Assembly (NCBI GenBank): GCA_963845755.1
Contig: CAWJTV010000043.1
Location: 32,001 to 96,000 of the forward strand
Origin: an uncultured Planctomycetota bacterium
GTDB lineage: Bacteria; Planctomycetota; Planctomycetia; Isosphaerales; Isosphaeraceae
Direction: 5' to 3'
Length of the DNA: 64,000 bases
The translations under genes and the position numbers were made by a program. The notes under the pieces are model-generated. The model was given only the letters and a program-made list of their open reading frames with translations. It did no database searches and was not told the DNA's origin. Of this stretch, positions 352-31,342 are shown piece by piece (position 1 is the stretch's first letter; the number at the start of each line of letters is the position of its first letter).

Positions 352-386
352 GGTTCCCTCACTTTCCTTCTGATGAACAATCTCTC

Positions 387-1610: not shown

Positions 1611-1904
1611 AGGGCTGACCGCGGCCTCGGAAGTGTCGAAGTCGCGATGGAGTGCTCAGTGGAACCCGAGCTTCGTCACACTGGCGTCTTGCTCGCTCGC
1701 CTTGCCGCTCTTGTTGATCGGAGGCGTTTGCTGTCGGCTCCCATCGAAGGAGAGAGCGGCCCCCCTCCTCGCGGAGCCGCATCTCGGTTGGGGCATAGGA
1801 CGTTCCGGGCGTCTGCCCGGCCCAAAGAGAAAACCACGTGTCAGACCGGTTTTCTCGCGGGACCGGGACACACGCCCAGACCTTCGCGGTCGGGAGGACC
1901 GGGC

Positions 1905-2769: not shown

Positions 2770-3140
2770 CGTTGCACTCCTTCGTTGGACGGTCATTGCC
2801 GGACGACTCGGGAACCACTCCCGAAAACGGACCGGCGTGACGTTGTCGTGAGTCGCTCGATTTAGCGGGAGGCTCATGGACTGGTCCTCCCGTGTCTGCG
2901 TTGCCAGGAACCTGGCTGCCGCCCGCGGCGCGCAGACCGGGCGCCCGGCGGTGTGGGCGCTGCTCGAAGGCAGAACCTCACCGGCCACTCTTCTCTGACT
3001 CAGGGGAAATCCGCAGGCATCCGGCACACAGAGGTGACGGGCGATTCGATGTGCTGTGGAATTTTGGTCTTGGTGCCTTCTGGGTCGGCTCTCGCTCGTT
3101 TGTCCCCCAGCAAGGCCACGGCCCGCGGCCTACGTCTTCG

Positions 3141-5990
3141 TCATCGTCCGTCCGGAGGAGTCTGCGGCTTCTGGCGAAGCGTCTTGAGCAACGCCTGGAA
3201 ATCCGAGCGGGGGCGTAGCGAGCGGAGATCCGGATCGCGCTCGATCCAGTCGGCCTCCCTGTAACCACGATCGACGGCTTGCTGCAGCGCAGCCATCGCC
3301 TTGTCGGAGTACACTTGAGATGACTTCTGCATGGGTTTGCTTGGGTCAGCAGGCAGGTTCGCCGTGACTTCGCCGGCCAAGGCGAGCCCGCAGGCCAGAT
3401 CGTAGGCGAACATATGATTTTCGCCGACGATCCGATTGCCAATTGCGATGGCCTGACCAAGAGACTCGAGGGCTTCGCCTGTCTTCCCTTGTTTAGCACG
3501 TGTCTTGCCGATCCCACGCAGAATCATGGCCAGGGCGTTCAGATTCCTCACGTCATTCGGATTCGTCTTGCGCACCATTTCCGCTTGTTCGCGCGCCTTG
3601 GCGAGGGCGTTCAATCCGGCCTCGATCTCGTCCCGGTCAATGAGATACTCGCCAAGCTCGGCAGAACTGGTCGCTAAGACCCTCCTGAATTCGTTGACGG
3701 CCGGATTCTCGACGACGATCCGTTCCATGATCTCCACCGACTCCACGAAGTGTTGTCGGCTCTCTTTCCATCGGCCCAGGATCTTGAAGAGGACTGCCAT
3801 TCCCCGAGTGCTCAAGGCGAGTGTGTAGCGCAACTGCGGATCTTCGGGATGTTCCGCGACGAGAGTCCGCTGGATCTGATTGGCCTGATGCACGGAATCG
3901 AAAGCCTCGGCGGGTTGCCCCTGCGCGACGAGGATCTGGCCCAGATCGCTCAGGGACATACCGAGCTCGATCCGATAGGACAGTTGATTGGGGAACTCCG
4001 CGGAGAGGCTCTCGAGCAGCGCGATAGCCGCCCGTTGGTGATGGATCGCCTCGTCGGGTTTTCCATGACCATGCAAGTTACTGGCCATATAATGATGGGC
4101 GAGGGCAAGATCGGCGCGGATCGCCGAGTCGCGTGGCGGATCCCTCTGGAGCTGGTTCAGAAGGGCGATGGAGCGCTCGAACGAGGTAAGCGACTCGTCC
4201 GATTGCCCGTGATTGGCCTGGATCATCGCCATCCTGACCAGGCAGCGACCCTCGCCCGCGCGGTAAGACTTTCTCAAGGGTTCGGCAGCTGCCTGCGCGA
4301 GCGATTTGTACATTTCCGAGGCCGTCTGGAATGCCTTTAGAGCGTCTTGCTTCGAGCCGATCTGGTCGATGATCTCGCCGACGCGCAGCGTGGCCGCGGC
4401 CAGATCGGCTTGCAGGTCGGTGTCGTCATGATTCTGGCTTACGAAGTCTTCGTAGTACTTCAAGGCTGTTGTCAGCAGCTCCTTGCGGAGTGGTTGCAGG
4501 CCGGGCAAGGGCGAATTGAGCAATCGACTCTCGCTGATCGCCGTCAAGTAATCGTCCACGGCGGCACGGGCGCGGGCCAGGTTGGCTTTTGCATCATCCT
4601 CCGCCCTGATCGCCCGGTCGCGCTGGTTCTGAGCTTCGAGCCGTTGTTTGTTTTCGCCATCGTAAGCCAGGATCGCCTCCGCCTTGGCTCTGTTGGCACG
4701 AACCGCCTGCCAGGCGCTGACGACCGAGGCCAGGATGAGCACAGCGGCGAAAGCGCACACCATCGCCATGACCCCGCGATACTTCCTGGCGAACTTGCTC
4801 AGACGGTAGGCCGACGACGGCGGACACGCCTGCACCGGCTCGTCATCCAGGTAGCGGCGCAGGTCGGCTGCCAACCCGTTCGCGGTCTCGTAGCGTCGAT
4901 TGCGGTCCTTCTCGAGTGCCTTCATCACGATCCAATCGAGCTCTCCCCGCACCAGAACGCTCAGTCTCCGCGGCTCGATGTGTCGACACGCCGCGATACT
5001 CGGCAGCTCCTCGGTCGAGCTCAGGCGCACGCTCGGCCGTGGAGACTCCTCCTCGCGGATCAGTCGCAGCACCTCGAGAAACAAGACGGACTTCAGCCGC
5101 TTGTGCTGCAGCGGGGTCGAGCCGGTCAAGAGCTCATAGATCAGGACTCCCAGGCTGTAGATGTCACTGCGGGTGTCGATGTCGAGCTGGTTCAATTCGG
5201 CCTGCTCGGGGCTCATGTACTCCAGCGTGCCGACCACCGCCCCGAACTCGGTGTACAGCGTCTCGTCGGTCAACCGCGGTCCGGTCGCCTTGGCCACCCC
5301 GAAGTCGATGATCTTCGGCACCGGTTGGCCATCGTACAGGGCGATCAGGACATTCGAAGGTTTCAGGTCGCGATGGATAATGCCCTTCTGGTGGGCGTGC
5401 TGTACGGCCTGGCACACCGGGATGGCCAGCTCGAGTCGCTTGCGAAGCGTCAGCCGGCGCTCGTCGCAGAACGTGGTAATCGGAATACCCTTGACCAGCT
5501 CCATCACGAAGTAGGGGCGTCCCTCTGCGGTGGCGCCGGCGTCAAGGACCTTGGCGATGTTGGGGTGGTCCATGAGGGCCAGTGCCTGGCGTTCGGCCCC
5601 GAACCGGGCCAGGACCTGTCGGCTGTCCATACCGGCCTTGATGAGCTTGAGCGCGACCGTTCGCCGCACGGGCTGGGTTTGCTCGGCCATGTAGACCGTG
5701 CCCATGCCCCCCTCGCCGATCCGCTGAAGGAGTTTATATGGGCCAATGGACTTTCCAGGCCATTCGCCGTCGGTGACTGACGCGTCATTTGCGGTCGCGT
5801 CGGCATCGACGGCCGGGGATTCCAGGAAGCTGCCGGCTGCGACATCATGGCGCAGGAGGTCTTCGATCCCGACGCGGAGCGACTCATCCACGCCACAAGC
5901 GGCGTCGAGGAACGCGGCACGTTGAGCAGGGTCGGCCAGCTCCGCTGCGGCGTTGAAGAGGCGCTCCATGTCCGATCTCGATGCAGCCAC
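3141..5990 (-). CDS. Hanks-type Ser/Thr kinase with TM segment and C-terminal TPRs
   Basis: IGEGGMGTVY, VALK, HRDLKPSN, DFG, YMSPEQ and DIYSLG motifs; hydrophobic segment; TPR-like helices. Confidence 0.95.
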   Translation of the reverse strand: MAASRSDMERLFNAAAELADPAQRAAFLDAACGVDESLRVGIEDLLRHDVAAGSFLESPAVDADATANDASVTDGEWPGKSIGPYKLLQRIGEGGMGTVYMAEQTQPVRRTVALKLIKAGMDSRQVLARFGAERQALALMDHPNIAKVLDAGATAEGRPYFVMELVKGIPITTFCDERRLTLRKRLELAIPVCQAVQHAHQKGIIHRDLKPSNVLIALYDGQPVPKIIDFGVAKATGPRLTDETLYTEFGAVVGTLEYMSPEQAELNQLDIDTRSDIYSLGVLIYELLTGSTPLQHKRLKSVLFLEVLRLIREEESPRPSVRLSSTEELPSIAACRHIEPRRLSVLVRGELDWIVMKALEKDRNRRYETANGLAADLRRYLDDEPVQACPPSSAYRLSKFARKYRGVMAMVCAFAAVLILASVVSAWQAVRANRAKAEAILAYDGENKQRLEAQNQRDRAIRAEDDAKANLARARAAVDDYLTAISESRLLNSPLPGLQPLRKELLTTALKYYEDFVSQNHDDTDLQADLAAATLRVGEIIDQIGSKQDALKAFQTASEMYKSLAQAAAEPLRKSYRAGEGRCLVRMAMIQANHGQSDESLTSFERSIALLNQLQRDPPRDSAIRADLALAHHYMASNLHGHGKPDEAIHHQRAAIALLESLSAEFPNQLSYRIELGMSLSDLGQILVAQGQPAEAFDSVHQANQIQRTLVAEHPEDPQLRYTLALSTRGMAVLFKILGRWKESRQHFVESVEIMERIVVENPAVNEFRRVLATSSAELGEYLIDRDEIEAGLNALAKAREQAEMVRKTNPNDVRNLNALAMILRGIGKTRAKQGKTGEALESLGQAIAIGNRIVGENHMFAYDLACGLALAGEVTANLPADPSKPMQKSSQVYSDKAMAALQQAVDRGYREADWIERDPDLRSLRPRSDFQALLKTLRQKPQTPPDGR

Positions 5991-6021
5991 GGTGTTACTC
6001 CACGTTTGAGTGTCCCGCAGG

Positions 6022-6052
6022 CCAATGCGACGAAATCGACCAATAGGGATCA
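6022..6052 (-). promoter_or_regulatory. Putative ECF-type promoter upstream of kinase (TGATCC-N17-CGCATTGG)
   Basis: Same geometry as the motif upstream of the second kinase at 8204-8234. Confidence 0.4.
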
Positions 6053-6070
6053 GCGCGTCCGTGAGATTCT

Positions 6071-6658
6071 TTATCTCCCTGCGCGATCGTTAACCGGGCC
6101 GCCCCACTCTGCCACCTCGCGGTGCAACCATGCTTTCGCGTAACGCCAGTATCGTTTGGCCGTTACGGCCGACACGCCCAACACATGGGACGCCTCATCC
6201 AGACTTAAGCCGGCGAAGAATCGCAACTGGACCAGGCGGGCCTTGATCGGATCCTCGGCCGCGAGTCTGGTCATCGCCTCGTCCAGGGCCAAGAGTTCCT
6301 CGGGCGGCATCCGGCAGACCAAGGATGCCTCGTCAAAATCGACGCGCAGTCGGCCGCCGCCATGCTTTTCACGGCGTTTGCGCCGGGCGTTTTCGACCAG
6401 GATACGTCGCATCGCTTCAGCAGCCGCGGCGAAGAAGTGGCCACGGTTATCCCAGCCGTCCTCGCGCCGGCCACCGACAAGTCGCAGGTAAGCTTCATGC
6501 ACGAGGTCGGTAGCCTGGAGGGTCAGGCCGGGCTTTTCTCGGGCCAACCTCCGTATGGCCAGCTTGCGGAGCTCCTCGTAGACTAGGGGTAGGAGCTGTT
6601 CGGCGGCCCGCGGGTCGCCCTGCTCGATCGCCGAGAGGATCCGTGTCACTTCGGTCAT
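6071..6658 (-). CDS. ECF sigma factor, TIGR02999-type (kinase-associated)
   Basis: MTEVTRILSAIEQGD..AAEQLLPLVYEELRKLA, TLQATDLVHEAYLRL, HFFAAAAEAMRRILV, VQLRFFAGL. Confidence 0.93.
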   Translation of the reverse strand: MTEVTRILSAIEQGDPRAAEQLLPLVYEELRKLAIRRLAREKPGLTLQATDLVHEAYLRLVGGRREDGWDNRGHFFAAAAEAMRRILVENARRKRREKHGGGRLRVDFDEASLVCRMPPEELLALDEAMTRLAAEDPIKARLVQLRFFAGLSLDEASHVLGVSAVTAKRYWRYAKAWLHREVAEWGGPVNDRAGR

Positions 6659-7185
6659 GGGAGACGGCCATCCTGGCCCATCCGCCCAGGTTGCTATCAT
6701 AGCCCGCTTCGGGGCTCCGTTGCTCCGACTCGACCTGAATAAAACTGCAATGAGGGCGCGGACGGCCAGACTTCATCGTAAATCAGACGGCCAGGAAATG
6801 ATAGGCGCACATGGCTTCGCCGAGCCAGACACGAGGCGACAGGTCACTGTGGCCAGGGAGCCTCGACCACGCTCAGAACTTGCCGGGCACCGCATTCTAA
6901 CGAGTCTCCGGAAGTTGATCCCCGGGGTCATCGATCGTCTCAGTGGCTCTCGTTTTCATCAGCCTCCTCCGACAGCCAATTATCAACGCGCACTCTTCAT
7001 CGTGCGCTTATGAATCATTGCCGGTGGCGGAAGCCCATCAGGAGTCGAGGTTCACGCAGCTTGAGAATCCTTCACTCGTGTGACGGCTAGTCCAGCATCG
7101 GGTCCAGCTCTGCCACAGCCTGCCTTTGGGAAGTCTCGAGAGAATCCCGGCGAACAACTCAACCCCTTTTCTGAATTGACTTAGA

Positions 7186-7232
7186 GGGCGATGAGGGATT
7201 TCGAAACCCCGACATCCTGCGTGTAAAGCAGG
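7186..7232 (-). repeat. att-like copy 3 of tRNA-Val(TAC) 3' half (slightly degenerate)
   Basis: gggcgatgagggatttcgaaaccccgacatcctgcgtgtaaagcagg matches the tRNA from 19972, with one extra T and two substitutions. Confidence 0.9.
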
Positions 7233-7632
7233 CTGACTCTTATGGAATTTGTGGCCCTAAGTGGAATAGCGATATGGCCTTATGACACGGCATTACTGTG
7301 CCACTCGTTTCCAGGATTTCTATAGTTTTGTGACGATTCATAATAGTTTAGCGCGGTCTCTCTGCCATGGCAGAGTTGATCTTCGCCGCGCCCTCACTTC
7401 TCGGCCAGAAGGACCGCAACGTGACACGCGCTCAACACGCTGCCACGTCAACGCGTCAGATGCTCATTCAGGTCCGAGCAAAGACGAAGTGGGTGCGCAA
7501 CTCAGGACGAGTCGCAAGTCAAGGTATCGGGGTCGTCAAGGACGTGGAGCGGGTGAAATCTCTGTTCGACCTATTCGCTGCGGTTCTGGACCAACTTTAC
7601 CGGATTCCGTCGGCGAGGCTAGACTCGGCGTT

Positions 7633-8181
7633 ATGTTCGAGATCACCCACCTTCTCGACGCCGCCGCGGCCGGCGACCGCCAGGCGGCGTCCGACCTGCT
7701 CCCGCTCGTTTACGACGAGTTGCGAAAGCTCGCGGCCGCGCGGATGGCCGCGGAGGCCCCCGGGCACACCCTCGACGCCACCGCCCTGGTGCACGAGGCT
7801 TACCTGCGGCTGGTCGGCGACCAGCAGTTCGACGGTCGAGGGCACTTCTTCGCCGCCGCGGCCGAGGCGATGCGGCGGGTGCTGGTCAACCACGCCCGGG
7901 ACCGCAACCGGCGGAAGCGGGGCGGCGGGCGGAATCGGGTCGACCTCGACCGGCTCACCGGTCCGGCCGTCGCCACCGACGACGACATCCTCGAGCTCGA
8001 CGGCGCCCTCGACCGGCTGGCGAACGAGTTCCCCGTAGCCGCCGAGCTCGTGAAGCTGCGGTTCTTCGCCGGGCTCACGCTGGGTGATGCGGCAGAAGCC
8101 ATGGGCATCCCCCGTCGGACCGCCGACCGGCACTGGTCATTCGCCAGGGCCTGGCTCGCCGACGCGCTCGCCGGAGGGTAA
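7633..8181 (+). CDS. ECF sigma factor, TIGR02999-type
   Basis: MFEITHLLDAAAAGDRQAASDLLPLVYDELRKLA, TLDATALVHEAYLRL, VKLRFFAGL, RTADRHW. Confidence 0.93.
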   Translation: MFEITHLLDAAAAGDRQAASDLLPLVYDELRKLAAARMAAEAPGHTLDATALVHEAYLRLVGDQQFDGRGHFFAAAAEAMRRVLVNHARDRNRRKRGGGRNRVDLDRLTGPAVATDDDILELDGALDRLANEFPVAAELVKLRFFAGLTLGDAAEAMGIPRRTADRHWSFARAWLADALAGG

Positions 8182-8203
8182 TCTCAGAATATTTTGGATC
8201 CCG

Positions 8204-8234
8204 TGGCGCACTCCCGGGCAAGACGGGGCATTGG
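8204..8234 (+). promoter_or_regulatory. Putative ECF-type promoter upstream of kinase (TGGCGC-N17-GGCATTGG)
   Basis: Parallels 6022-6052 and is followed by a GGAGG RBS before ATG 8265. Confidence 0.4.
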
Positions 8235-8264
8235 GAGAGGAAACCCTAACCCGGAGGTGAAAAC

Positions 8265-11200
8265 ATGCCCGACGCCAACCCCGGACTGATGACCCTCTTC
8301 GCCGAAGCCCTGGAACGCACCGACCCGGCCGACCGGGCCGCATACCTGGACTGCGCCTGTGCGGGCGATGCCGCGCCTCCGCCGTCGGGTCGAGGCGCTG
8401 CTGGCCGCCCACGACGGCGCCGGCCGTTTCCTGGAACCCGATGCCACCGGCGTGTCCGGACCCGCGTCAGCCGCAACCCTGGAAGCGACCGGGACATCCG
8501 CGCCGGAAACGCGTCCCCCGCCGGAACCGGCGACCCGGGAAAACACACCCGACGGCACGATCGCCGCGGTCCCGGGCGCCACGCCGGCCGCCTCCCCCGA
8601 TGGGTTCGTCGCGGGCCAGGTCATCGCCGGCCGTTTCACGCTGCTGGAGGTCCTCGGCGAGGGGGGGATGGGCACGGTTTACCGGGCCGAGCAGACCCAG
8701 CCGGTCAAGCGGCCGGTGGCCTTGAAGCTGATCAAGGTCGGCATGGACTCGCGCACGGTGCTGGCCCGGTTCGACGCCGAACGCCAGGCTCTGGCCTTGA
8801 TGGATCACCCGAACATCGCCCGCGTTTACGACGGCGGCACCACTGCGGCCGGCCAGCCGTTCTTCGTGATGGAGCTGGTCAAGGGCGTCCCGATCACCGA
8901 GTACTGCGACCGGCATCGGCTCCCGGTGCGGGCCCGGCTGGAGCTGTTCGTGGCCGTCTGCCAGGCGGTCCAACATGCCCACCAGAAGGGGATCATCCAC
9001 CGCGATCTGAAGCCCTCCAACGTCCTGGTCACCGAGGTCGACGGCCGGCCCACCCCCAAGGTCATCGACTTCGGCGTCGCCAAGGCGACCGAATTCCGGC
9101 TCACCGAGCAGAGCCTGGCCGACACCGGGGCGATCGTCGGCACGCCGACGTACATGTCGCCGGAGCAGGCCGACCCGTCGTCGATGGACATCGACACCCG
9201 CACCGACGTCTACGCGCTGGGCGTAATCCTCTACGAGCTGCTGGCCGGCTCGCCGCCGCTCGACGCGAACCAGTTCAAGCGCGGGGCGCTCCTGGAGATG
9301 CTGCGGATGGTGCGGGAAGTCGACCCGCCCCGGCCAAGCACCAAGGTCAGCACGGCCGAGGCCCTGCCCAACATCGCCGCCAGCCGCGACATCGAGCCGG
9401 CGCACTTGAAGCGGGCGCTCACGGGTGACCTCGACTGGATCGTGATGAAGGCGATCGAGAAGGACCGCTCCCGGCGGTATGAGACGGCGAACGGCTTCGC
9501 GGCCGACGTCCTGCGCCACCTGGCGAACGAGCCCGTCGTGGCCGCGCCGCCGAGTCGGGCCTACCGGATGCGGAAGTTCGTCCGGAAGAATCGTGGCCAG
9601 GTGATCGCTGCGAGTTTGGTGCTGGCGACGCTCGTCATCGGCATCGTGGGGACCACCCTGGGCTTGTTCCAGGCCAGGCGGCAGGAGCAGATCGCGCAGA
9701 CCTCGGCGACGAATGAGGCGAAAGCACGCAGCAAAGCAGAAGACCTCGCGACGAAGGAGGCGAGGGCACGCGGGCAAGCGGACGAACGAGCCGAGCAGCT
9801 CGCCCGCGAGGATTACGTCAACCGCGTCAACCGGGCCTATCGCGAGGTGGAAGACGATAACGTCGCGCTGGCCGAGGACCTGCTGCACGGTTGTCCGCCC
9901 GAACGTCGCGGCTGGGAGTGGCATTCCGTCAAGAGGCTCTGCCGCTCGGAGCGACTCGTCCTGAATCCGGCCCAGAGCGTCAACGCCGTCGCCTACAGCC
10001 CGGACGGGAGCTGGATCGCGGCAAGCTCGGGCGCGGTGGTATTCCGGGGGATGGGGACCCCGAGAGATGAATCGGCCGTGAACCTCTGGGATGCGGCGAC
10101 GGGCCGGCGGCGACTGGTCCTTCGCGGGATCAAAGGCTGCGTCTATGGCCTGGCCGTGAGCCCGGATGGAAAACGGATCGCGGTCGGAAGCGGGACCGAA
10201 CGCCCCAAAGTCGAAGCCCGACTGTCGGTTTGGGATGCGGCGACCGGCCATGTCGTATGGTCCCGGGACGAGCCGGAATTCGAGGCCATGAGCGTCGCCT
10301 TCAGCCCTGACGGCAAGTCGGTCGCCGTGGGCTTCGGGTTCTACCTCGGCGATTCCGTCGGCAAGGTCAAGGTCTGGGACGCCGCCACCGGTCGAGAGCG
10401 ATCGACGTTCACCGGCCCGCCGGGGTGGGGAGTGAACAAGATCGCCTTCCATTCCGACGGTCGTCGACTCGCCGCCGCCGGGTCGGGGGCACCCAGATCT
10501 GGGACATCGTCGCCGGATCCAAGGTGCGGGATCTGGTCGGCCACGACCGATGGGTCCTGGGTGCCGCCTTCAGCCCCGACGGCAAGTGGCTGGCGACGGG
10601 TGGGTGGGACCGGACGGTCAAGCTGTGGAATGCCGACACCGGTGCGGAGGAGCGGACGATCTTCGCCCACGAGGGCTACGTACTCGATCTGGCCTTCAGC
10701 CCCGACGGCCGGCGCCTCGTCACGACGAGCGAGGACCGCAGCGTCAGGCTCTGGGAGATCCCCTCAGGACGCCGCGTCGCGACCTACCATGGCCACACCG
10801 ACTTTGTCCAGGCCGTCGCCTTCCGGCCGGACGGCCGTGAGCTGGCGAGCGCCAGCCTGGATGGCTCGGTCAGGGTCTGGAACCTGCGCACCAGCCGCCC
10901 GGTCGTCTTTGGCGGGCACTCCGGCTGGGTCGAAACCCTGGCGTTCCGGCGGGATGGCCGGCGGATCGTCTCGCTCGGAGGCAGACAGACGGCCCAGGGC
11001 GAGGTGGCGATGGGCTGGAACCCGGAAACCGGCGAGCTCGACCCCTCCCTGAGCGGGGTCGACCTCACGGCCCCCTCGTCCCTGTTCGTGGCAGGCACCT
11101 CGATGGGCGAAAGGCTCTCGAAAGGGGAAGTGACCGCGAAAAGCGCCGACGGAAAGCTGGTGGTCCAGCTCAGCCAAAACAGCGGCTACGGTGAAACGTC

Positions 11201-12533
11201 GCGCAGCCGGGAGTACGAGGTCAGCTCGGTCGTGATCCGGGATGCGGCGAGCGGCCGGGTGCTCCATACGCTGATTGGCCACTCGGCCGATGTCACCTGC
11301 GCCGCGTTCAGCCCGGACGGTCGGCGGCTGGCGACGGCCAGCTTCGACCGGACGATCAAGCTCTGGGACACGGCGACGGGCCGGGACGTCTTCACGCTCC
11401 GAGGCCACACCGCGGGCGTGGTCGCCTTGGCCTTCAGTCCCGACGGGAACCGGATCGCCTCGGGCGGCATCGATCACACGGCCCGAATCTGGGACGCGAC
11501 CCCGCTCTCGACCGAGGTCCTGCGAGCGGACGACGACCGTTATCGGCGAAAGATCGCCACGCTGGAGCAATTGAAGGGCGCGGAGGACGACGCTGAGCGG
11601 GGCAAGATCCTGGCCAGCGGTGGCCAGTGGGGTATGGCGGCCGAGGCGTTTGCCAGGGCGGTGGAGAAGGAACCTGAGAAGATCCAGCTCCGCTACCAGC
11701 TCATCGATGCGCTTTTGCAGGCAGGTGATCGAAGCCAGGTCGGGGCCGCCTGCGACGATTTCCTCAAGCGGTTCGGGAACAGCGGCGATCCCATCCGGGA
11801 CTTGCTAGTCACCGGGCTATGTCGGTTGGCTTCGCAGGCGATCACCGATCCGGAGAAGCGCCTGGCCGTTCACGCGTTCGCCCTGGCGAGCAACGGCGAG
11901 GAGCGGGTTCTGGTCCTTGGCCGGTACGGACAGTGGGACCGGGTTGCCTCCGTATTCACCAAATTCGTGGAAGCGAAATATATCGACGACAATCCCGAGG
12001 GACTCGAATTCTTCCAGATCCAACTTCTGTCCCTCGTGGAGTCGGGCGACCTGCCGGGATATCGGTCCGCGGCGGGCAAGCTCGTTTCGCAATACAGCAA
12101 GACCTCCGATCCCAACTCACTGAACAACGCGGCCTGGTACTGTACCTACGCCTCCGATGCCGTGGCCGATCTCGCCGTCCCGGTCCAGATGGCCGAGAAG
12201 GCGCTCGCGGGCTTTCCACCCGAGCAGAAGCGACTCGTCGTCAACACCCTGGGCGTCGCGCTGTATCGCGCGGGGCGGATCGACGAGGCGATCGTCCGAC
12301 TCGACGAGAGCGTGAAGGCATCCGGGGGCGTCGGCCTTCCCCAGGATTGGGCCTTCCTCGCGATGGCCCACCACAAGAAAGGGAACGGCGACGAGGCCCG
12401 CCGCTGTCTCGAGAAGCTCCGATCCCACAAGCCGGATGAGAAGGCCGGCTTCTCGACGGATGTTGTGGAGTGCCGGATGTTCCACCGGGAGGCCGAGGCG
12501 CTGCTCCGGGAGCCTCCTCGCGCGCGCCCTTGA
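8265..12533 (+). CDS. Ser/Thr kinase with TM, WD40 repeats and TPRs (frameshifts near 8375 and 10490)
   Basis: Kinase motifs in ORF 8359..11052; GH...V..VAFSPDG..LA...D.T.KLWD repeats and TPRs in ORF 10425..12533; N-terminus in ORF 8265. Confidence 0.9.
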
Positions 12534-13189
12534 TCCGACTACGCGAGCGGCCCCGGGGTGGCTTGCGGCGGCGGACTCGTGCAGGGCTCGGAGCATCCGG
12601 CAGACTCTCGGACCAGCACAACGTCTCTCCGTACGAGTCCCGCCCGCATACCGACGGTGCGCATCACATCAGCCTGATCCTCTGTCTGGCCGACAATCAA
12701 GCGAAAAACCGCCCCAGTGACTCCGATGGGGGACGCGAAGGACACTCGCCGCAACCCCCTGGCATGTTCCCGCGCCGTGCGTGTTCTTGATGCCCGATAC
12801 TGGCTGGCAACGTCAACCAGTACGGCTTGATTGTCTGGTCGACCTACAAGGAACCGGGGCACTGATCATGTTTGAAGCGCGCCCCGCCGTGCCGGCGCAG
12901 TCCAACGGGTAACGACCGCGTGACCGGGATCCCATCGGCTTCCCGCGTCGTGTCATCATAGGTATCTGCCGAACAAAAGCCCGGAGTCCGTGAAATTCGA
13001 ACAACCCCTGCAAGATGGCCATCCGTAGACGGTTGCATTGGGTCACCAAAGCGACCGAAGACGAAACGTGGCGAAAGGCGCATCGGAGTAAGTCTGGGGA
13101 GTAAAATATCAGCGGCAGCCTGAGCCGGAGCGGATTCAAATATAGGTGCCGAGGAAATACGTGGCGTGACTGCCGGCAGGCTGCGTCGG

Positions 13190-13420
13190 TTCGACATGAA
13201 TGGGGATGTCTGGGAGTGGTACTGGGAGGGAAATGAGAAATACGACGCGAAGTCGCCAGCCGTCGATCGGTCGGCGCAGCGGGGGCCTTCGACCGCGTGG
13301 TTTGGGGCGGGTGCTGGGACCTCCGCGCCATCAGCACGCGGGCGTCGTTCCGGAACACGGGAACGCCGGAGTGCCGGGGCTACAGCATGCTCGGTTTTGC
13401 GTAATCCGAGGCCAGTATGA
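13190..13420 (+). pseudogene. Formylglycine-generating enzyme (SUMF1/FGE-sulfatase) C-terminal remnant
   Basis: FDMNGDVWEW...KSPAVD, then in a shifted frame DRVVWGGCW...RASFRN...LGF. These resemble the DM.GNVWEW / RV.RGG.W / R / GFR motifs. There is no N-terminal part. Confidence 0.65.
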
Positions 13421-13583
13421 GGAATAGGGGAAGCGTAGACCTTGATAAGCTCATTTGTGGGACAACTTCCGTGTCTCTGCGTCGTGGAGTGACATAATCG
13501 TGTCGACCTCACAATGGAGAGCGCATTCGAGAAACCCAGGCGCTCTACCTCGACATAACTCCCTGAATACACAACGTTTACAA

Positions 13584-13631
13584 TGGGCGATGAGGGATTC
13601 GAACCCCCGACATCCTGCGTGTAAAGCAGGT
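13584..13631 (-). repeat. att-like copy 2 of tRNA-Val(TAC) 3' half
   Basis: tgggcgatgagggattcgaacccccgacatcctgcgtgtaaagcaggt; one mismatch to the tRNA from 19971. Confidence 0.95.
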
Positions 13632-15942
13632 TCAAAATCCGCGATTTTTCGGTTGCAAGCTATTCTTTGTTAAGGCTTTAGGGTTAGACCATCCGCCAAG
13701 ACCGTTTTCCAGGCAGTCGAAAATTTTGCCGGGTTTTTCTGACTCTTATCGTGCTGTGTCTGCACGTGCAGAGCTGCACGCGACGCTGGAAAGTTTCGTC
13801 CGGCGAACTCTCCGAACTGCGCCGCCAGTGCCTCGATGTCAATTTGCGAAGTGTGCGCCGCGAAGTCAAAGTTGCCGATCAGACTGACATCCCGCCAAGC
13901 GACGGGCGACGTGCCCCTGAGAATCTTGATCGCTCCTGGTCATCGGCTGCGAGCTTCTGCTCGTACACTCGACAAGAGCAGGATAGTGTAGTAGATGATG
14001 GCGTTTGCGATGAGCCGTGAGCACTCGTTCCAGATCTACTTTATCTATCAGCGGAACATGTTCCAATCAGGTAAAAATGTGAATGACCGCAATGCTGGCT
14101 CCGGACCAGTCGTTCGATTTCACTCCCGGCCACAAGCGGACCCCTGGTTATTGGTCACACCGACAATGCGGCGCGCAGATCGTGTCCAATCTCATTTCTG
14201 CGGAACGTCGGCTCAAGCTATTCTGAAGGTTGTCTCGGCCCTGATCGTCGACGAACAGGCACGGGTCGCCGGATGGGCCGTTGAGCATTCGCAGTTCCCG
14301 GAACGCCCTCGGACGGGGCATGAATCACCACCCTCTTCGCCGGCGCAATCCAACTGACTAAACTATGGCGCGGCGTCGTTGTCGAGCCTGTGTCCGACTA
14401 CACCGCCTATCCCCGTTCTGTTTTTCGAGGTTTTCATGCCACATCGACGGTTCCTAGCCCTCATCGTCATGACTGGAGTCAGCGGCCTCCATGGGGTCGA
14501 CACACGGGCCGACGAGCCGCCGTCCTACGAGGTGTACGCTGTCCGGTATGGCACGTGCCCCGGCTGTCCAGTCTCTTTTCTCGTGCAGGGGGCCGAACCG
14601 CAGCGGAAGGTCGACCTCGCCATGACTTTCTGGGTGCTGAAAGGCCCAGACGGGCGGACGGTCCTGGTCGATGCCGGGTTCTACCGGCCGCAGTTCTTCA
14701 AGGAGTTCGAAGGGATCGCCGACTACACTCGACCCGACCGGGCGGTTGGGCGACTCGGGATCAAGCCGGAAGAGGTCACCGACGTCATCGTCACACACAT
14801 GCACTCGGATCACGTCGATGGTGTCGATTTGTTTCCGAAGGCAACGGTCTGGATCCAGAAAGATGAGTTCAATCATTACACGCGCGAGGTCAAGCCGCCG
14901 TCCGGCAAAGGCGCGCCGACCGAGCTGGATGACGTCTCGGCCCTGGTGAAGCTGAACACCGAGGGCCGTGTTCGTCTGGTCGACGGCGACGCCAAGGAGA
15001 TCATACCGGGAGTGACGATTTACACCGGAGGGAAGCACACGTTCGCGTCGCAGTACGTGGGCGTAAATACGAAGTCGGGCCGCATGGTGGTGGCGTCGGA
15101 CAACGTCTATCTGTACGAGAACCTCGACAAGCACATGCCGATCACGGCTACGCTCGACGCCAAGTCAAACCTGGCTGCGCAGGACCGGATGAAGCAGCTC
15201 GCGACCAACCCCCGATTGATCATCCCGGGACACGACCCGGAGGTGTTCGTCCGGTTCCCGAAGCCGGGGAATGGTGTGGCTCGAATCGAGTAGGACTGAG
15301 AGCGGGAATCGTGGTGTACGCGGACCCTCCCTTCACGAGGAGCGAAGGGACATGCACTGCAACGCCAGCAGCTTCCAGTGGCCGGATGTTGACCACAAGC
15401 TTAACCTATTATGAGCAAAACGGTTCGGGTGTTTCGGCAATGCCCGAGCTTGGGAGATCCTCCCTGCGGTGCAGATGTTTCCAACTCCGACGGCGCTACA
15501 TCCCGAAGACCCGCATGCGGCTCCAGCGCATGTCGCTCATCGACCGGCGGGAAACCGATCAGGGGGTTCCAGTGCCTGGCTGTCTTTCCAGCCAGTCGCG
15601 CTGGGCGACGAGCTCATGATGATGTGGCGACTCGTCTTCCCAGGCTTTCACGGCTTTCCTGGACACCTTCGATTTGCGACGAATTTGTGGGTGTCTGGAT
15701 TCGCGCGTCTGGATTTCCCTGTCGGGCGCAAGCTCAATTGCAAGAGCCGGATTAGCCAGAGTGATGACCTGCGATCAGACAGGCTCTTGCAACTCTGCAC
15801 AGTTTTTCCGACGCAAACCATTGCTATAAAAAGGCTTATGAGTATCACACAACTGACAACTCTGCACGGTGCAGATGTCGAGTCTTAATTTATTCGTCGA
15901 GATTTGTCGACGTAACATACTGTAACTTAACGACTTGCGTAA
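13632..15942. mobile_element. Integrase-less tRNA-Val insert B (MBL hydrolase cargo)
   Basis: Bounded by tRNA 3'-half repeats; TCTGCAC palindromes near both ends. Confidence 0.7.
14436..15293 (+). CDS. Secreted metallo-beta-lactamase-fold hydrolase, N-acyl-homoserine lactonase family
   Basis: Signal peptide, LVDAG, THMHSDH, GKHT, ASD and IPGHDP motifs. Confidence 0.88.
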   Translation: MPHRRFLALIVMTGVSGLHGVDTRADEPPSYEVYAVRYGTCPGCPVSFLVQGAEPQRKVDLAMTFWVLKGPDGRTVLVDAGFYRPQFFKEFEGIADYTRPDRAVGRLGIKPEEVTDVIVTHMHSDHVDGVDLFPKATVWIQKDEFNHYTREVKPPSGKGAPTELDDVSALVKLNTEGRVRLVDGDAKEIIPGVTIYTGGKHTFASQYVGVNTKSGRMVVASDNVYLYENLDKHMPITATLDAKSNLAAQDRMKQLATNPRLIIPGHDPEVFVRFPKPGNGVARIE

Positions 15943-15988
15943 TGGGCGATGAGGGATTCGAACCCCCGACATCCTGCGTGTAAAGCAG
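15943..15988 (-). repeat. att-like copy 1 of tRNA-Val(TAC) 3' half
   Basis: tgggcgatgagggattcgaacccccgacatcctgcgtgtaaagcag; one mismatch to the tRNA. Confidence 0.95.
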
Positions 15989-16166
15989 TTTGGTTCCCAA
16001 TGATTCTCTCGCCGCAACTTATTGAAAAACATGGCTTTACGCAATAATAAGTCACTGAGAACGTTTTCCAGGGACTCGCAAGGTTTCCCTGGTTTTACGC
16101 AGTTTTGTGAGGGTTTTGGTGCAATGCACTGAAACCGGTCAAATAATGTTTGATTGTTGTTGATGT

Positions 16167-16484
16167 CTACAATAGCTTCCATCTGCACGGGCTATGATGC
16201 CAGGATGAGGCATCGACTCTGGTTCGGGGGGAAGTGAAGGCGGAGGGCGATAAAGGCGCGTGTGCGGCGTAGAGTTTTCTGGTCACTCGAATGAGGTTCG
16301 AGTGGCCGCTTCGGTTGATCTCTGGTTCTATTAATCGTAACTGAGAATGCTCGGAGTTATCGATGAGTTTTCGAGCGGCCTCTTCGGGGCGTGATTGGAG
16401 TTGCCTTAAGTTCTCGAGACTGATACCAACGTCGTCCCACGTGAGACGGTTCTTGTAGACATCCAAACAATATTGCTCTGCCAA
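16167..16484 (-). CDS. Possible small hypothetical protein (lower-GC segment)
   Basis: 105-aa ORF directly downstream of the kinase; no recognisable motif. Confidence 0.25.
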   Translation of the reverse strand: MAEQYCLDVYKNRLTWDDVGISLENLRQLQSRPEEAARKLIDNSEHSQLRLIEPEINRSGHSNLIRVTRKLYAAHAPLSPSAFTSPRTRVDASSWHHSPCRWKLL

Positions 16485-16533
16485 AGAGGCGAATCACTCG
16501 GTATCGACAAAAAGTATTAAATGGAAGGAGCGA

Positions 16534-19481
16534 TCATGGTTTCGGGATCGCCTTGGCGGCCTGGACCGGCTTCGTAGCGGCCTCGATCGTCGCGCGGACG
16601 TCGGCCCAGAGCGATTCCCAGGCCGCCCGCTCGTCAGCGAGGAGGTTGAGCTGGGGGTCGCCGGCCCGGACCATGGCAAGGTCGGCGTCGGAGAGCCACA
16701 ACGACAGCTTGTCGGCGGAAGCCTTCCGCTCGGCAGGCTGGTCGGAATTCGCCTGCGCGGCTCGAACGGCGAGTTCGGCGCGGAGCCAGGCCAAGGCCTT
16801 CCCGCGGAGTGCGGCCCGCTCGGCCGGTACGTCCGGGGCGTCGACGCCCCGGCCGATCGAGGCCAGGAGGGCGACGCATGCGGCGTCATATCGATCCCCG
16901 GAATTCGGAACCTCGGCCAACTTCGGGTCTCCGGCGAAGGCGCCGTCGAAGAGGCGAGCGGCCGCAGCATATTGGCGCCGGTAGGACAAGGCGCACAGGC
17001 GAGCGAACTCGAGGCCCTCGGCCGGGGTGGCCGGGGCCGACCGTCCGGCCACGACGTCGTCGAGACGAGGCAAGAGATCCGCGGCCCGCCGCACGCGGTC
17101 CAAGGCCCTCGCCGAGCCAAGGTCCTTGGGATCGAGCTCGACGAGCTTGCGGAACTCGGCCTCAGCAGCCGCCTGGTCACCTTTCTGCGCAAGAGACTCG
17201 CCAAAATCTTCCGAGAGAAACCGTCCCCTGGGTTGACCTCGACGGTCCTCCGGAAGAGCTGCTCGGCCCCGGCGTCGTCCCCCCTGTCGTGGAGGATGTA
17301 GCCGAGGTTGTTCATGGCGAGCGTGAAGCGAGGGTTCAGCTCGATAGTCCTGCGATACTGGGACTCGGCGGATTTCAGGTCCCGCTTCCCGTACTGGAGG
17401 ATCTGCCCCAGCACGAAGTGCCCGACCGCGTTGTCGGGGTTGAGGGCGATCAGGGTCCGCGCGTAGCCGACGGATTCCTCAATGCGGACCGGGTCCGTGG
17501 GATATCCCTCGCTCAAGGCCCAGGCCAGATCCCTCAGGAGGGTGCGATCGGACGGGGATCTCTCCCAGGCGTGCTGGAGGATTCGGGCGCCCTCCCCGTA
17601 GGATCTGCACCGCAACACCAGGGCATCGCCGATGAGTACCGCCGTCGGCGGAGGCAGGTCGAGCGCCGAAAGGCGGCCGGCCAGGCGGTTCAACGCCTCG
17701 CATCCGCCCGCGATGGCGGCCCGGATCTCCCGGCGGACCGGATCTCCATCGACGAGATCGGCCGCCGCCCTGACTCGGTTGACCGTCGGGTTGGCCCGAT
17801 AAAACGCGGAGGTATGCCACCTGTCGAGCGCCTTCAACAGCGCGCCGCGGAGGCCGGGACGCTCGGCACGCACGGCGGCGGCCAGCGTCCGCGGGTCGCC
17901 GCCGGCGGGCAATCCGGCCTCCTCGAACGCCAAGTGGTAGAGTTGACGCTTCTTCTGGTCGTCGATCAGGCCTCCGGCCGTCCCGGCATCCGCGCCCTCG
18001 GCATTCTCGAGGGCGGCCAGTAATCTCGCGTCGCGTCGGGACCCGGTCAGGCGGGAGCGGAGCGCGCTGGCCGCCTCGCCCGTCCTGGCCCTGACGTCCG
18101 CGCCGCCGACCTCGGCGACTGCACTCTCGGCTTGGGCGACGGCGGCCTCGGCCTGCTCCAAGAGCTTGACGGCCGTGTTGGCCTCGAACAGCTCCGCCGG
18201 GTCGATCGCCCCGGCCTGGGCCTCGAGCTCCTCGGCTCGGCCGAGGGCGACGCTGGCGAGGCGGTCGGCATCGTTGCGGCGTCCTTCGACCTGGTTACGG
18301 ATGATAAACGCGGCCGAGACGCCGACGACCAGAAGGGCGAGTGCGCCGACGGCGACCGCCCGTCGCGCCCGTCGCTTCTGCCGTTCGGCCCGGGATTCGG
18401 CCTCGAGGCGGGCGCGGTCCCCCTCGGCCCGGACGCGGTCGAGTTCGGCCTGGCGGGCACGCTCCTCGGCCTCGGCGCGAAACGAAGCGATCGCTCGGGC
18501 GACCGCGCCGGCGTCGCTAGGGCGGTCGTCGCGCTCGGGGTTGAGGCAGGACTTGCAGAGGGCAACCAGCTCGGGCTCGGCGCCGCTGGCGTCGAGCCGG
18601 GCAAAGCAGTCATCGAGCTTGCCCCGGGCGGCCAGCACGCGGATCGCCTCGGCATTGCCGCCGACATAAGGGGGTTGGCCGGTCAGGATCACCGCCAGGA
18701 CCGCCCCGAGGCCGAAGACATCGCTGCGCTCGTCGACCTCCTCAACGGCGCCGACGGCCTGCTCGGGCGCCATGTATGCCGGCGTGCCCAGCACGCTGCC
18801 GGACTGGGTCTGCGAGCCGTCGGAGTCGTCGTGGGCCGAGAGGATCTCGGTGGCCATCCGTTCTTCGGAGTCGGACGGCCGGGTCTGTCCCGTCGGCCGC
18901 CCGAGCACCTTGGCCAGGCCCCAGTCCATCACCTGGACCTCGCCAAACGAACCTACCATGATGTTCTGCGGCTTGAGATCGCGGTGGATCACGCGTCGGG
19001 CATGGGCGTAGGCGACGGCCTGGCAGACCTGCTCGAAGGCGGCCAGGAAACGGCCGCGGTCGGCCCCGGGATTCGGGCGCTCGGCGACGAGGTCGCCGAG
19101 GTTCTGCCCCTTGATCAGCTTCATCGCCAGGAACGGCCGGCCACCGGGCAGGGTGCCGAGGTCGTGGATCGGCGGGATGCCCGGGTGCTGGAGCTGGGCG
19201 GAGATCCGGGCCTCGTCCACGAACCTCCGGGCCACGGCCGATCCTGTATGGTAACGGCTCTGGAGAATCTTGACCGCGACCTGCCGCCCGAGCGTCCGAT
19301 CGTCTGCCAGGTAGACCTCTCCGATCCCACCCCGCGCGATCATCTCGCGCAGGTCGTAGCGAAAGCTCGGACCGGCGGCGACATCGGGCGCCCTGTGACC
19401 TTCGCCGGCTCCGGAGGGCTCCTGATTCACAACCCCGAGGGTGACTTGCGCGTCCGCGTCAGGCTTCAAATCCGGGGGCAT
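16534..19481 (-). CDS. Ser/Thr kinase with TM and TPRs (frameshift near 17170)
   Basis: IARGGIGEVY, VAVK, HRDLKPQN, DWG and YMAPEQ motifs. The C-terminus (RYDAAC..LR.KAL.WLRAEL) is in ORF 16534..17103. Confidence 0.9.
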
Positions 19482-19666
19482 CTCGAGGCTCCCTGAAGTC
19501 GGCGCCGACTCTCAGTGAGATTGTACTAGCCACGCATCACGATACCAGGTTGTAAATATCGATTTCATGCCTGAGACGGCTTGTCCATTCTCGAAAAGGG
19601 AAGATAGTATTTGTGCGATGCCAAGGACATTTGAGTTCACCCGAACGAGTATCTAGCGGACGGTAA

Positions 19667-19864
19667 ATGCCCTCCGCCGCATAGCCCGGCAATCAAGAAG
19701 CCCTGAATCCAGGCGGGCAATCCAGGCTCGGCCGTCTGCTCGGCTAGCACTACAGCACCGTCTGGCGGAAGCTAAACGGCAAATCGCAGATCACGCGAAG
19801 AGACGAAATCGCGATCCGGCACGCCGTAGTTTTAGTGCAAGAGGAAAGCGTTGTACAGCAATAA
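19667..19864 (+). pseudogene. Degraded small Cro/XRE-like helix-turn-helix gene
   Basis: Manual translation MPSAA*PGNQEALNPGGQSRLGRLLG*HYSTVWRKLNGKSQITRRDEIAIRHAV...; fits the Q..LA..LG....TV.R..NG pattern, with two in-frame TAG. Confidence 0.5.
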
Positions 19865-19969
19865 CTTACGGGTGACTTGGGGGGGAATATCAGTGCAATG
19901 GTACTCAATCCATCCTAATTCTTTAGTGGGAAACGTAGCTGTAAGTCCTTGTCTCTCTAAAACTTGAAT

Positions 19970-20043
<74 letters not shown>

Positions 20044-20117
20044 ATTGTCGTGAGACGATCCCATTTGGTCCACGTTAGCGTTCTTGCCCGGAGAATTCCA
20101 TCCGAAAAGTTACCACC

Positions 20118-28452: not shown

Positions 28453-31342
28453 ATGCGGCCGAGGTGGCTCGCAGCGATCATCGCAACGCTTTCCGTCGCG
28501 GTACTGGCGACCTGGGGAACTCTGCGCGCCGTGGAGGACCGGCGTTGCCGGGGCCTGCTCGAGGAGGCCCGGCGCGAGATGGACGGCGGACGGTACGGTG
28601 CGGCCCGGGCGAGGCTGAATGAGCTGTTGTCCCGTCGGCCGGAATGGGACGAGGCCCGATACAACCTGGGCGTCTGCGAACAGTCCCGCCAGCGCGTCCA
28701 GGCGGCATGGGACGCATTTGAGCGGGTGCCGAAAGACTCGCCGTGGGCCGGCTGGAGCGACGTGCGTCGATCGCGGATCGCCATGGACCGCGGCCGTTTT
28801 TCCGACTGTGAAGATCTCCTGTTCCGCGCGACGGCGCGGCCAGGACCGCACAGGGCGGAAGCCAGGTGGGGCTTGGTGCTGCTCCTTCGAATGCAAGGGC
28901 GATTCGACGAGGCAAAGCGGTGTCTCCAGGCGGGTTTCGACCAGATGAGTTCGCCCGTGACAACGCTCCAGCGCCTTTACAAGATCGATAACGACCCCTT
29001 CCCGATCGAGGGAGTCCGCCGAGGACTGGACCGTGCCGGCGCAGGCACCCGATGACGATCGCGTCTGGCTGGCCCGGGCTCACCTGGCGATCCGGCTCGG
29101 CGATTTCGAAGAGGCCCGGCAGTGGCTCGATCGCTGCCTGGCCCGCCGTCCTGAGGACCCGGCTGTCTGGCGGATGAAGCTGCAATGGGCTCTCGCCTGC
29201 GACCGACCCGAGGAGGTGAGGACCGTCCTACCGCACCTCCCAGCCGACGAGGAACCGGTGGACCGGGTCCTGTCCCTTCGGGTCTGGATGGCCGCGCACC
29301 AGCACGACCGCGAGACCCAGCGCCGCGCCTTGAAAACCTGGGTCGAGCTCGATCCGACCAACGGAGTGGCGCGAGAACAGCTCGCCGAGCTGGAACGGGC
29401 TGATGGTCATTTTCGCGAGGCCGATGCCCAGCGAAGCTCGGTCCGTGCTCTGGACCAGCTCCGCAAAGAATACACACGACGACTCGCCACGACATCGCCC
29501 CGGTCGCACGCCAACGAGCTCGCACGGCTGGCGAGTCAGCTCGGCCGCCCGTTCGACGCCGACAGGTGGATGGAACTCTCGGGCCAGAAAACGCCCAACG
29601 CCTCTCCATCGCCCCGCGATCCGGTCGTTGTTCCGGGCCCTGGACCGCGAACAACATTGGCCGACCTCCTCTCGGACATCGGATCAGCCGAAAACGTAGA
29701 TCAGGCGGTCGCATCGCAGCGGGTCCTGCCGCGATTCATCGATTATGCCTCCCAGTCGGGCTTGGCTTTCGTCCATGAGAACGGTGGTGCGCGGGCGCGG
29801 CTCATTCCTCCCGTCACGGCCAGCGGCGGCGTGGGACTGATCGATTTCGATGGTGACGGCTGGCTCGACGTTTACCTGGTTCAGGGTGGGCCGTTCCCTC
29901 CGCGGTCGAGGACATCCCGGACCGGCGATCGCCTCTTCCACAACCGGGGAAATGGGACCTTCGAGGACGCCACCGGCCCATCCGGGATCGGCTCGATGCT
30001 CGGGGGATACGGCCATGGAGTCACCGTCGGCGATTACGACAACGACGGCCGCCCCGACCTGTTCGTCACCCGGTGGAAATCCTATGCCCTCTATCGGAAC
30101 CGAGGTGATGGGACATTCGAGGACGTGACCGCGAAAGCCGGCCTGGAGGGCGATCGGGACTGGCCGACCTCGGCCGCTTTCGCCGACCTCGATGGCGATG
30201 GCGATCTCGACCTGTATGTTTGCCATTACATGAAGTGGGACGAGAACCAGACCAATACCTGCGCCGACCCGAACGACCCGACGATCTACCGATGTCTTCC
30301 GCTCGACTTCGAGGCCCTACCGGACCACCTGTTCCGCAATGACGGCGGCCGCTTCATGGACGTGACCGCGGAGGCGGGGATCGTGGACCGAAATGGTCGG
30401 GGACTGGGGGTGCTCGCGGCCGACCTCGACGAAGACGGCCGGATCGACCTGTTCGTCGCCAACGACATGACGGCCAACTACTGGTTCCGGAACCTCGGAG
30501 GGCTGCGTTTCGAGGAGGTGGCCCAAACCGCGGGAGTGGCCGCCAACGCGTCAGGTTCCTATCAAGCCGGGATGGGCGTGGCCTGCGGCGACCTGGATGG
30601 GGACGGCCACCTCGACCTGGCGGTCACGAACTTCTACAACGAGTTCGACCTCGTTCTTCCGGAACTTTGGCCAGGGCTTTTTCGGCGAGCAGGCCGCGGC
30701 CGTGGGAATCGCCGGTCCCAGCCGTTACGTCCTCGGTTTCGGGATCGCCTTTGTCGATGCCAACAACGACGGCTGGCCCGACCTGATCACCGCCAATGGC
30801 CACGTCCACGACGGCCGCCCCCAGTTCCCCTGGATGATGCCGACCCAACTTTTTCTCAACGACGGTCGCGGCAAGATGATGGACGTCACCAAGCGGTCCG
30901 GCCCTCCGTTTCAGGTTCCACGCATGGGCGCGGACTGGCCGTTGGAGACATCGATAACGACGGACGGCCCGATGTCATGGTCGTCTCTCAGAACGAACCG
31001 GTCGTCTTATTCCACAATCAGACCGACGGGGGCCATTTCCTCACCTTCCGCCTGGAGGGTTCCCCTTCCAATCGCGATGCCGTCGGTGCCTTGGTCTCGG
31101 TCCACTGCGAGGGACGCATCCGGATCGTCACCTCGTCTCGGAGGCGGAAGCTACCAGTCCGCTGGCGATCCGAGGTTCCATTTCGGACTGGGTGCAGTCC
31201 CGGCAAGTCGATCGGGTTGAGGTGCGGTGGCCCTCGGGACGCGTCGACCACTACACCAACCTCGCCGTCGATACGGGTTACCTGCTCCGCGAGGGTGCCT
31301 CCGCGGTCCGGTCCCCTGGCCGGATGGCGGTCGTTGCAATGA
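28453..31342 (+). CDS. TPR + FG-GAP/CRTAC1 + ASPIC/UnbV protein (several frameshifts)
   Basis: N-terminal TM and TPRs, repeated DFDGDG..D motifs, GGSYQS...HFGLG and VEVRWPSG. Confidence 0.88.

Follow-up and report, generated by a model that had tools for sequence, protein, structure and literature searches.

The locus examined here raises the question of how inserts that encode no recombinase have come to stand in tandem behind a tRNA gene in a planctomycete from soil. The window, that is, the whole stretch of 64,000 nucleotides that was analysed, was placed by sequence as part of contig C43 of genome G000. It contains an intact tRNA gene and a row of inserts (cassettes) separated by 3′ fragments of that gene:

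19970–20044, minus strand: intact tRNA-Val(TAC), the target gene (ARAGORN)
15989–19969: insert A, 4.0 kb, subtype 1, arm word TGCAC[CT], without recombinase
15942–15988, minus strand: tRNA 3′ fragment separating A from B, the att core, starting in the anticodon stem (97.9% over 47 nt)
13632–15941: insert B, 2.3 kb, subtype 1, arm word TGCAGA[GC], without recombinase
13583–13631, minus strand: tRNA 3′ fragment separating B from C (98.0% over 49 nt)
7233–13582: insert C, 6.3 kb, subtype 2, far word GGCAGAG, without recombinase
7186–7232, minus strand: tRNA 3′ fragment separating C from D (93.6% over 47 nt)
1–7185: insert D, 9.1 kb, reaching about 1.9 kb beyond the left edge of the window, GGCAGAG at both ends

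A fourth, more decayed fragment was located with the far-end profile outside the window, at G000:C43:30086-30204, and as a far end accompanies it there, the array consists of four inserts, A to D. Fragment identity drops outward (98, 98, 94, 88%). Array order was considered as an age gradient and rejected, being present in the window and unclear in 15 other loci.

None of the four inserts contains a recombinase. Genome G000 has 43 matches to PF00589 and 37 to PF00239, not one of either on contig C43, and PF00589 integrases are absent from the Val arrays of 10 other genomes. Two candidates for the responsible enzyme were discarded. No PF00239 match was obtained in the Val arrays of 5 genomes, which speaks against a serine recombinase, and the integrase behind tRNA-Lys on contig C37 is part of another element.

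The ends of A and B are the most informative part of the array. The sequence-only reading had described insert-specific arm motifs there, and all could be verified at their positions: in B, palindromes at 13759 and 15861 with CTCTGCAC at 15793, and in A, the motif GTGCAATG at 16119 and 19893 with AGTGCAA at 19834. The same is true of the paired boxes at the near (tRNA-proximal) ends of A (19844/19942, 98 bp) and B (15814/15913, 99 bp), and of the proximal box further out, which was found at 13556 with 2 mismatches and at 7159-7160 with 3. The features of A, from the tRNA outward, are:

19942–19966: near-end box 1, IHF-like (1 mismatch to the box pattern)
19892–19905: inner arm site, an imperfect inverted pair, in the same register as the inner arm of 21 subtype-1 ends
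19844–19868: near-end box 2, IHF-like (box pattern)
19830–19841: outer arm site, overlapping the end of the HTH gene
19709–19843, plus strand: broken Cro-like HTH gene with one in-frame TAG, directed at the tRNA
16494–19481, minus strand: cargo, Ser/Thr kinase with TPR repeats, frameshifted close to the C-terminus
16135–16213, plus strand: conserved promoter/operator-like module of about 65–80 nt, directed at the HTH gene (profile match)
16114–16134: far-end arm palindrome
16040–16113: far-end phased A-tracts, period about 10 bp (best period 10 over 87 far ends)
16015–16039: far-end box, IHF-like

Those of B are:

15913–15937: near-end box 1
15857–15875: inner arm site, an inverted pair
15814–15838: near-end box 2 (0 mismatches)
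15790–15800: outer arm site
15720–15771, plus strand: remnant of an HTH gene (weak match, E=0.002)
14379–15293, plus strand: cargo, hydrolase of the metallo-beta-lactamase fold
13757–13773: far-end arm palindrome
13656–13680: far-end box (0 mismatches)

Within the window alone, the specificity of these words is modest, as judged by scores of 14 at the near ends: A's word reaches 5+6 on A's near end versus 6+4 on B's, and B's word 6+6 on its own near end versus 4+4 on A's. TCTGCAC also occurs in insert A at 16182, within a different conserved module. A copy of B's hydrolase cargo with 94.8% identity is found on G000:C16.

Insert D, with a cargo of ECF sigma factor, kinase and DUF4915, is of subtype 1, as are A and B, while C is built differently at its near end:

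13556–13580: C, near-end box 1 (2 mismatches)
13516–13546: C, near-end pseudo-core, in which the tRNA anticodon-stem core is repeated symmetrically, in degenerate form, around a 7-bp spacer
7633–12533, plus strand: C cargo, ECF sigma factor and a frameshifted kinase-WD40-TPR gene
7358–7375: C, far-end arm palindrome
7258–7282: C, degenerate far-end box (3 mismatches)
7159–7183: D, degenerate near-end box 1 (3 mismatches)
7107–7124: D, inner arm site (7/7 match to D's far word)

The window array belongs to a family with members in other Isosphaeraceae. The far ends of relatives align nearly gap-free and share a box, six A-tracts of period 10 and, some 140 bp away from the core, a palindrome of 21-22 bp. 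A far-end model, R1, built from 21 far ends, gave 131 matches (training sequences counted) in 46 of 121 family genomes, and a single weak match in 101 genomes of another order. The fetched loci hold 108 distinct far ends, and behind 88 of them a fragment of tRNA-Val, Ala, Pro or Lys was detected; the longest array (G029:C5) has 7 far ends in tandem. Fifty inserts of 1.2-17 kb could be closed within one locus, with a tRNA or fragment at both ends and 24 of them directly at the tRNA. Closure was limited to loci of at most 20 kb, leaving 58 of the 108 far ends unclosed, so that large integrase-bearing members are excluded from this set by construction. Identity with the tRNA begins within the anticodon stem, with the loop preserved, and the shared core has a 7-bp overlap. 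Near ends are of one of two dedicated types in fixed register in 38 of the 50 inserts; the other 12 fit no profile and look eroded.

The boxes follow the pattern YAA-N4-TT-N7-AA-N4-TTR. At one mismatch or fewer it occurs at 8 positions in the 64 kb window, 6 of which lie at the ends of A and B, a placement that is not due to chance. A third box is present at each far end (16015, 13656, 7258). Among the 50 inserts the first near position is occupied in 30, the second in 15 and the far one in 43, where shuffling gives means of 1.0, 0.7 and 1.6. Each 25-bp box comprises two units resembling CAA-N4-TTR, the portion in which the IHF consensus, given as WATCAANNNNTTR in the accessible text of PMC7581858, has specified bases, and the boxes may well bind IHF. 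Genome G000 has an IHF/HU protein whose best match is IHF-beta, at 87 bits, under the cut-off of 115. As boxes of like form also follow other tRNA islands in genome G000, they are a general feature and not specific to the cassettes. Taken by sequence, the insert ends are putative lambda-type attP parts: an anticodon-loop core, IHF-like 25-bp boxes, phased A-tracts and arm words.

The sequence-only reading had further held that the arm motifs of each insert match end to end. This is upheld in the larger set of 50 inserts, from 23 genomes and 2 metagenome contigs, in which the two ends do covary. Arm words include GACTCC, TGCACC, GGCACC, CGAACC, GGCAGAG and TGCAGAG. When the right half of the far palindrome is scored against near ends (maximum 20), an insert's own ends reach a mean of 14.36, versus 12.68±0.22 after permutation and 13.27±0.25 after permutation within tRNA target; 0 of 20,000 permutations attain the own-end value in either case. 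Among subtype-1 inserts picked by eye (n=24), 18 match 6 or 7 of 7 at both near sites, and among the 22 picked by profile, taken one per genome (n=17), 0 of 500 permutations did so well in each of 200 draws. Mismatched ends are seen in L183 and L155/18423.

Insert C had been noted as lacking a clear right-end match. It indeed has no arm-word match, and in this it is like the other members of its subtype rather than a counter-example, as subtype 2 has a symmetric tRNA-core copy in place of near arm words. In the 16 such near ends found, two inverted copies of the target tRNA's anticodon-stem half-site flank a 7-bp spacer that varies. The half-sites are CCTGG/CCAGG in all but one of 9 inserts at Ala(TGC), CCTGC or GCAGG in most Val(TAC) inserts, and CACGG/CCGTG in a single Pro insert. 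Arm words do not match between the ends of 15 subtype-2 inserts (11.4 vs 11.9). Arm sites on both sides, presumably integrase-specific, are present in subtype 1 and lacking at subtype 2 near ends. That the spacer varies suggests that the pseudo-core would be a binding site for the core-binding domain rather than a crossover site. If it is part of a working attP, it represents an unreported way of building one.

The 50 closed inserts (260,151 bp) lack a tyrosine integrase according to a local profile and 26 tblastn queries (0 matches), and the same 26 queries do detect the integrases of other tRNA-Val islands. With 30 integrase queries a single match of 37 aa (E=0.039) was obtained. The 212 called genes were grouped into similarity clusters, and in the 144 proteins that represent these clusters Pfam returned neither Phage_integrase nor Resolvase, and no relaxase or conjugation genes. 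What the inserts do carry is cargo: kinase, WD40, TPR and sigma factor ORFs form one similarity cluster that spans 22 of the 50, and restriction, toxin-antitoxin and ABC-3C genes also occur. Many cargo genes and HTH genes are broken.

Whole cassettes recur between genera. Insert A shares 96.6% identity over 3603 nt with the insert of L065, from another genus, and L138/11336 and L145/11852, from two genera, are 99.8% identical over 4124 nt. This 4124-bp cassette is first in one array and internal in the other, with different neighbours. Relatives of A and B were also found in public sequencing-run contigs (best share 0.27); one contig joins 16298 to 19637, linking A's module and HTH region without the kinase, which at the low stringency used is a hint only. 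The 15 of 75 contig joints listed include no circle junction, a sample that weighs neither for nor against circularisation, and neither a circle nor an empty site was found for any cassette.

Integrases with the same arm words are found on much larger elements. The tRNA-Val integrase of L033 has direct GGCAGAG repeats upstream, and its relatives are present in 40 of 121 genomes. At 13 of 30 integrase loci, tandem words with a 13-bp period, identical to cassette words, occur after the same tRNAs. Five of seven traced elements could be closed, at 51, 55, 55, 60 and 101 kb; each has the family far end with the element's own word and encodes its own tyrosine integrase. One large element is a prophage with terminase, portal and head genes, and two are plasmid-like, with relaxase or coupling-protein, Rep and Par genes. 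At L117, L129, L176, L191 and L193, an integrase lying downstream of a far end is part of the element that follows; since four of these far ends are ends of large elements, they are not evidence that cassettes arrive after helpers.

In a set of 18 integrases, whose pairs are not independent, N-terminal identity is 0.68 for proteins with the same word versus 0.54 otherwise (by tRNA, 0.57 vs 0.55). In the same 18 proteins and with the same dependence between pairs, the core-binding and catalytic parts give 0.65 and 0.66 for the same tRNA versus 0.46 and 0.47, and the tree groups them largely by tRNA. An N-terminus that tracks the word fits arm-binding integrases as the available portions of PMC8138268 and PMC2951348 describe them, and arm words would accordingly be bound by this domain. 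A PDB search with the integrase gave weak Xer-like matches only.

The proposal that related recombinases of differing arm specificity read these inserts finds support in the suggested search for integrase-bearing tRNA-Val relatives with the same arm variants. Tyrosine integrases with different words do adjoin the same tRNAs, and the integrase of L228 pairs Val(TAC) with GGCAGAG, which fits C and D; among the loci read there is none with exactly A's word or GACTCC, and none that combines B's word with Val(TAC). No integrase of this clade lies in or beside the window array, and genome G000 has only a 31% relative with another arm word. G036 has no clade integrase at E<=1e-10, and G043 and G046 have fragments or distant matches only.

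Of the possible explanations, we favour as the probable one that each insert is a non-autonomous att cassette, dependent for its movement on integrases that larger phages and plasmid-like elements supply as helpers. A cassette would retain what a lambda-type heterobivalent tyrosine integrase needs of an attP, namely a 7-bp overlap in the anticodon loop, boxes, an A-tract bend and words at both ends. When a prophage or plasmid-like element of the matching clade is present, its integrase would excise the cassette as a circle, and the same enzyme would integrate the circle at a tRNA anticodon loop, leading to arrays of up to 7. Recombination would thereby take place in trans, the arm word picking the helper and the core picking the tRNA. 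In subtype 1 (A, B, D) the near arm is longer than in the helpers, and a promoter and a Cro-like HTH gene often accompany it; in subtype 2 (C) a symmetric pseudo-core takes the place of near arm words. More tentatively, the cassettes might be a class of hitcher purpose-evolved for phage-type tyrosine integrases, the counterpart of MITEs or CALINs for integrases that target tRNA genes. Their small backbone would consist of far arm, promoter, variable genes, Cro-like HTH gene and either an extended near arm or a pseudo-core; it would match the arm words of more than one integrase family and form tRNA-anchored arrays of kinases, ECF sigma factors and defence genes.

A different origin, which we regard as rather unlikely, is that the inserts are CIMEs: decayed prophages or IMEs that lost the integrase by deletion, kept their att sites and can be moved only in cis, by excising together with an integrase-bearing element that has inserted beside them. 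Integrase-less, cargo-bearing CIMEs 1.2-13 kb in size are common in tandem tRNA arrays (accessible sections of PMC7563491 and PMC5704250), and this reading would suit the far end common to cassettes and large elements, the outward decay of the window's fragments, the weak prophage match of the module and the phage-like genes beside it (see below), and a broken clade integrase about 31 kb from a far end on G043:C25. Transfer in cis followed by precise excision of the helper would even give an identical picture. Deletion should, however, leave a helper-type near end and integrase remnants, and 0 of the 50 small inserts match a helper-type near end beyond one box or hold an integrase remnant found by the 26 queries. 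Instead, 38 have near ends of the two dedicated types in their fixed register, arm words remain matched between ends, and whole cassettes recur in other genera with no helper alongside.

It is improbable that the inserts derive from unseen autonomous ancestors with an integrase far from both ends and are now mostly inert, with homologous recombination or transduction of the tRNA region as their means of spread. The 58 unclosed far ends leave room for such ancestors, as do the incompleteness of the genomes and the number of integrase loci read (some 40); yet no subtype-1 or -2 near end stands beside an integrase in these loci or in the 7 large elements, and an identical cassette occupies different array positions among different neighbours.

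The HTH gene and the module deserve separate mention, and A has both, the gene being broken. A Cro-like HTH gene directed at the tRNA is present in 18 of the 50 inserts, and the module gives a profile match in 15. The HTH family is weakly YdaS/Cro-like, with no Pfam or PHROG match over cut-off, and it was not found in viral contigs or in the 7 large elements. It has 663 homologs and is present in 46 of 121 genomes, mostly just within a tRNA island, and 30 such loci have no integrase within 1.5 kb. Six additional small islands, at tRNAs for Asp, Leu and Val(CAC), were recognised by this gene and have other matched words; 5 of them have no integrase match and 1 has a match of 49 aa. The module has a weak match in the prophage (E=8e-4), phage-like small genes lie between it and the HTH gene, and a consensus promoter scan of 15700-16500 gave no promoter, the module included. 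That the motifs serve not as recombination sites but as operators, for the small HTH protein or for other regulators, as their palindromic shape and the frequency of the HTH gene might suggest, is very improbable, as this protein is nearly constant while the words vary, occurs also with unrelated words and is missing from large elements that carry the words beside an integrase, and as the words track the integrase N-terminus.

If helper integrases do move the cassettes, Isosphaeraceae would acquire signalling, restriction, toxin-antitoxin and ABC-3C genes through such arrays. With arm words that vary in nature and are paired with shuffled integrase N-termini, the arm-recognition code can be tested directly, and orthogonal integrase/att pairs may be obtained. 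We found no description of such elements in planctomycetes in the freely readable literature. According to the available text of PMC4383910, island finders of the Islander type demand an integrase for each array member, and integrase-less arrays are therefore missed.

Among known systems, IMEs and mobile genomic islands differ in that the cassettes encode no integrase while their five large relatives do, and phage satellites (PICI, P4-like) in that the cassettes, by Pfam, have neither their own integrase nor primase and replication genes. The hitchers of MITE and CALIN type, as the accessible part of PMC11389934 presents them, are similar in their enzyme-less ends, in mobilisation in trans by a helper recombinase, which we infer for the cassettes, and in forming cassette arrays; the cassettes described here use tRNA anticodon loops and an arm-type attP, not terminal inverted repeats or attC hairpins. 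Unlike integrons and CALINs, their junctions are tRNA 3′ fragments with arm sites, and no integrase is located at the array. With the lambda-type attP/Int/IHF system (PMC2951348, PMC7581858 and PMC8138268, in the sections available) they share a tRNA core, two-sided arm words, IHF-like sites and an integrase with separate arm and core parts, but they have no integrase in cis, their far arm is an inverted pair with phased A-tracts, and in subtype 2 a pseudo-core replaces the near words. The closest known kind are the CIMEs of streptococcal ICE/IME arrays, which the accessible text of PMC7563491 and PMC5704250 describes as decayed, att-flanked, integrase-less and moved in cis. Like the cassettes, these are small, cargo-bearing and in tandem at tRNA 3′ ends with att sites kept. 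CIMEs are defined in those sections as deletion products distal to an ICE or IME, whereas the arrays reported here contain up to 7 members with no resident helper, and the cassettes have near ends unlike those of helpers, matched arm words and a distribution of whole copies across genera.

The hydrolase gene of insert B (window 14379-15293) has a copy at 94.8% identity elsewhere in the source genome, at G000:C16:45186-46288, and, judged from this second copy, the gene may be host cargo that was captured recently. Other cassette cargo includes an ABC-3C system (L162:1116-4949), an XhoI-type restriction system (L043:11550-12642) and a dCTP deaminase (L165:17434-18429). Insert D contains, to the left of the window (G000:C43, about 30395-30525), a 125-bp repeat that is found in more than 40 copies throughout the source genome, at 80-96%.

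Beyond the array in the window, the same genome holds three additional family inserts, located at tRNA-Ala(GGC) (G000:C22:187672-189641), tRNA-Pro(CGG) (G000:C5:732789-735173) and tRNA-Lys(CTT) (G000:C45:61686-61865). A tRNA-Pro(CGG) is the position of a 54.5 kb planctomycete prophage in another genome of the family (G022:C4:225600-280200; L196, L265, L266). One array of the source genome comprises 26 tRNA genes (G000:C41:590256-593662), and a second, smaller array lies on contig C20. Some relatives possess two tRNA-Val(TAC) loci (L074, L075, L087, L088), and in L074 and L075 a full tRNA copy is accompanied by fragments upstream of it.

At loci L198-L227, small phage-like genes, which differ among the loci, adjoin the start codon of the HTH gene on its upstream side and are situated between the promoter module and the HTH gene, as if this position were a site of gene capture. 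The HTH gene also occurs on islands of 2-4 kb at tRNA-Asp, tRNA-Leu(CAG), tRNA-Leu(TAA) and tRNA-Val(CAC) (L285-L290); none of these islands has a full integrase, and their arm words are direct repeats that belong to other integrase families.
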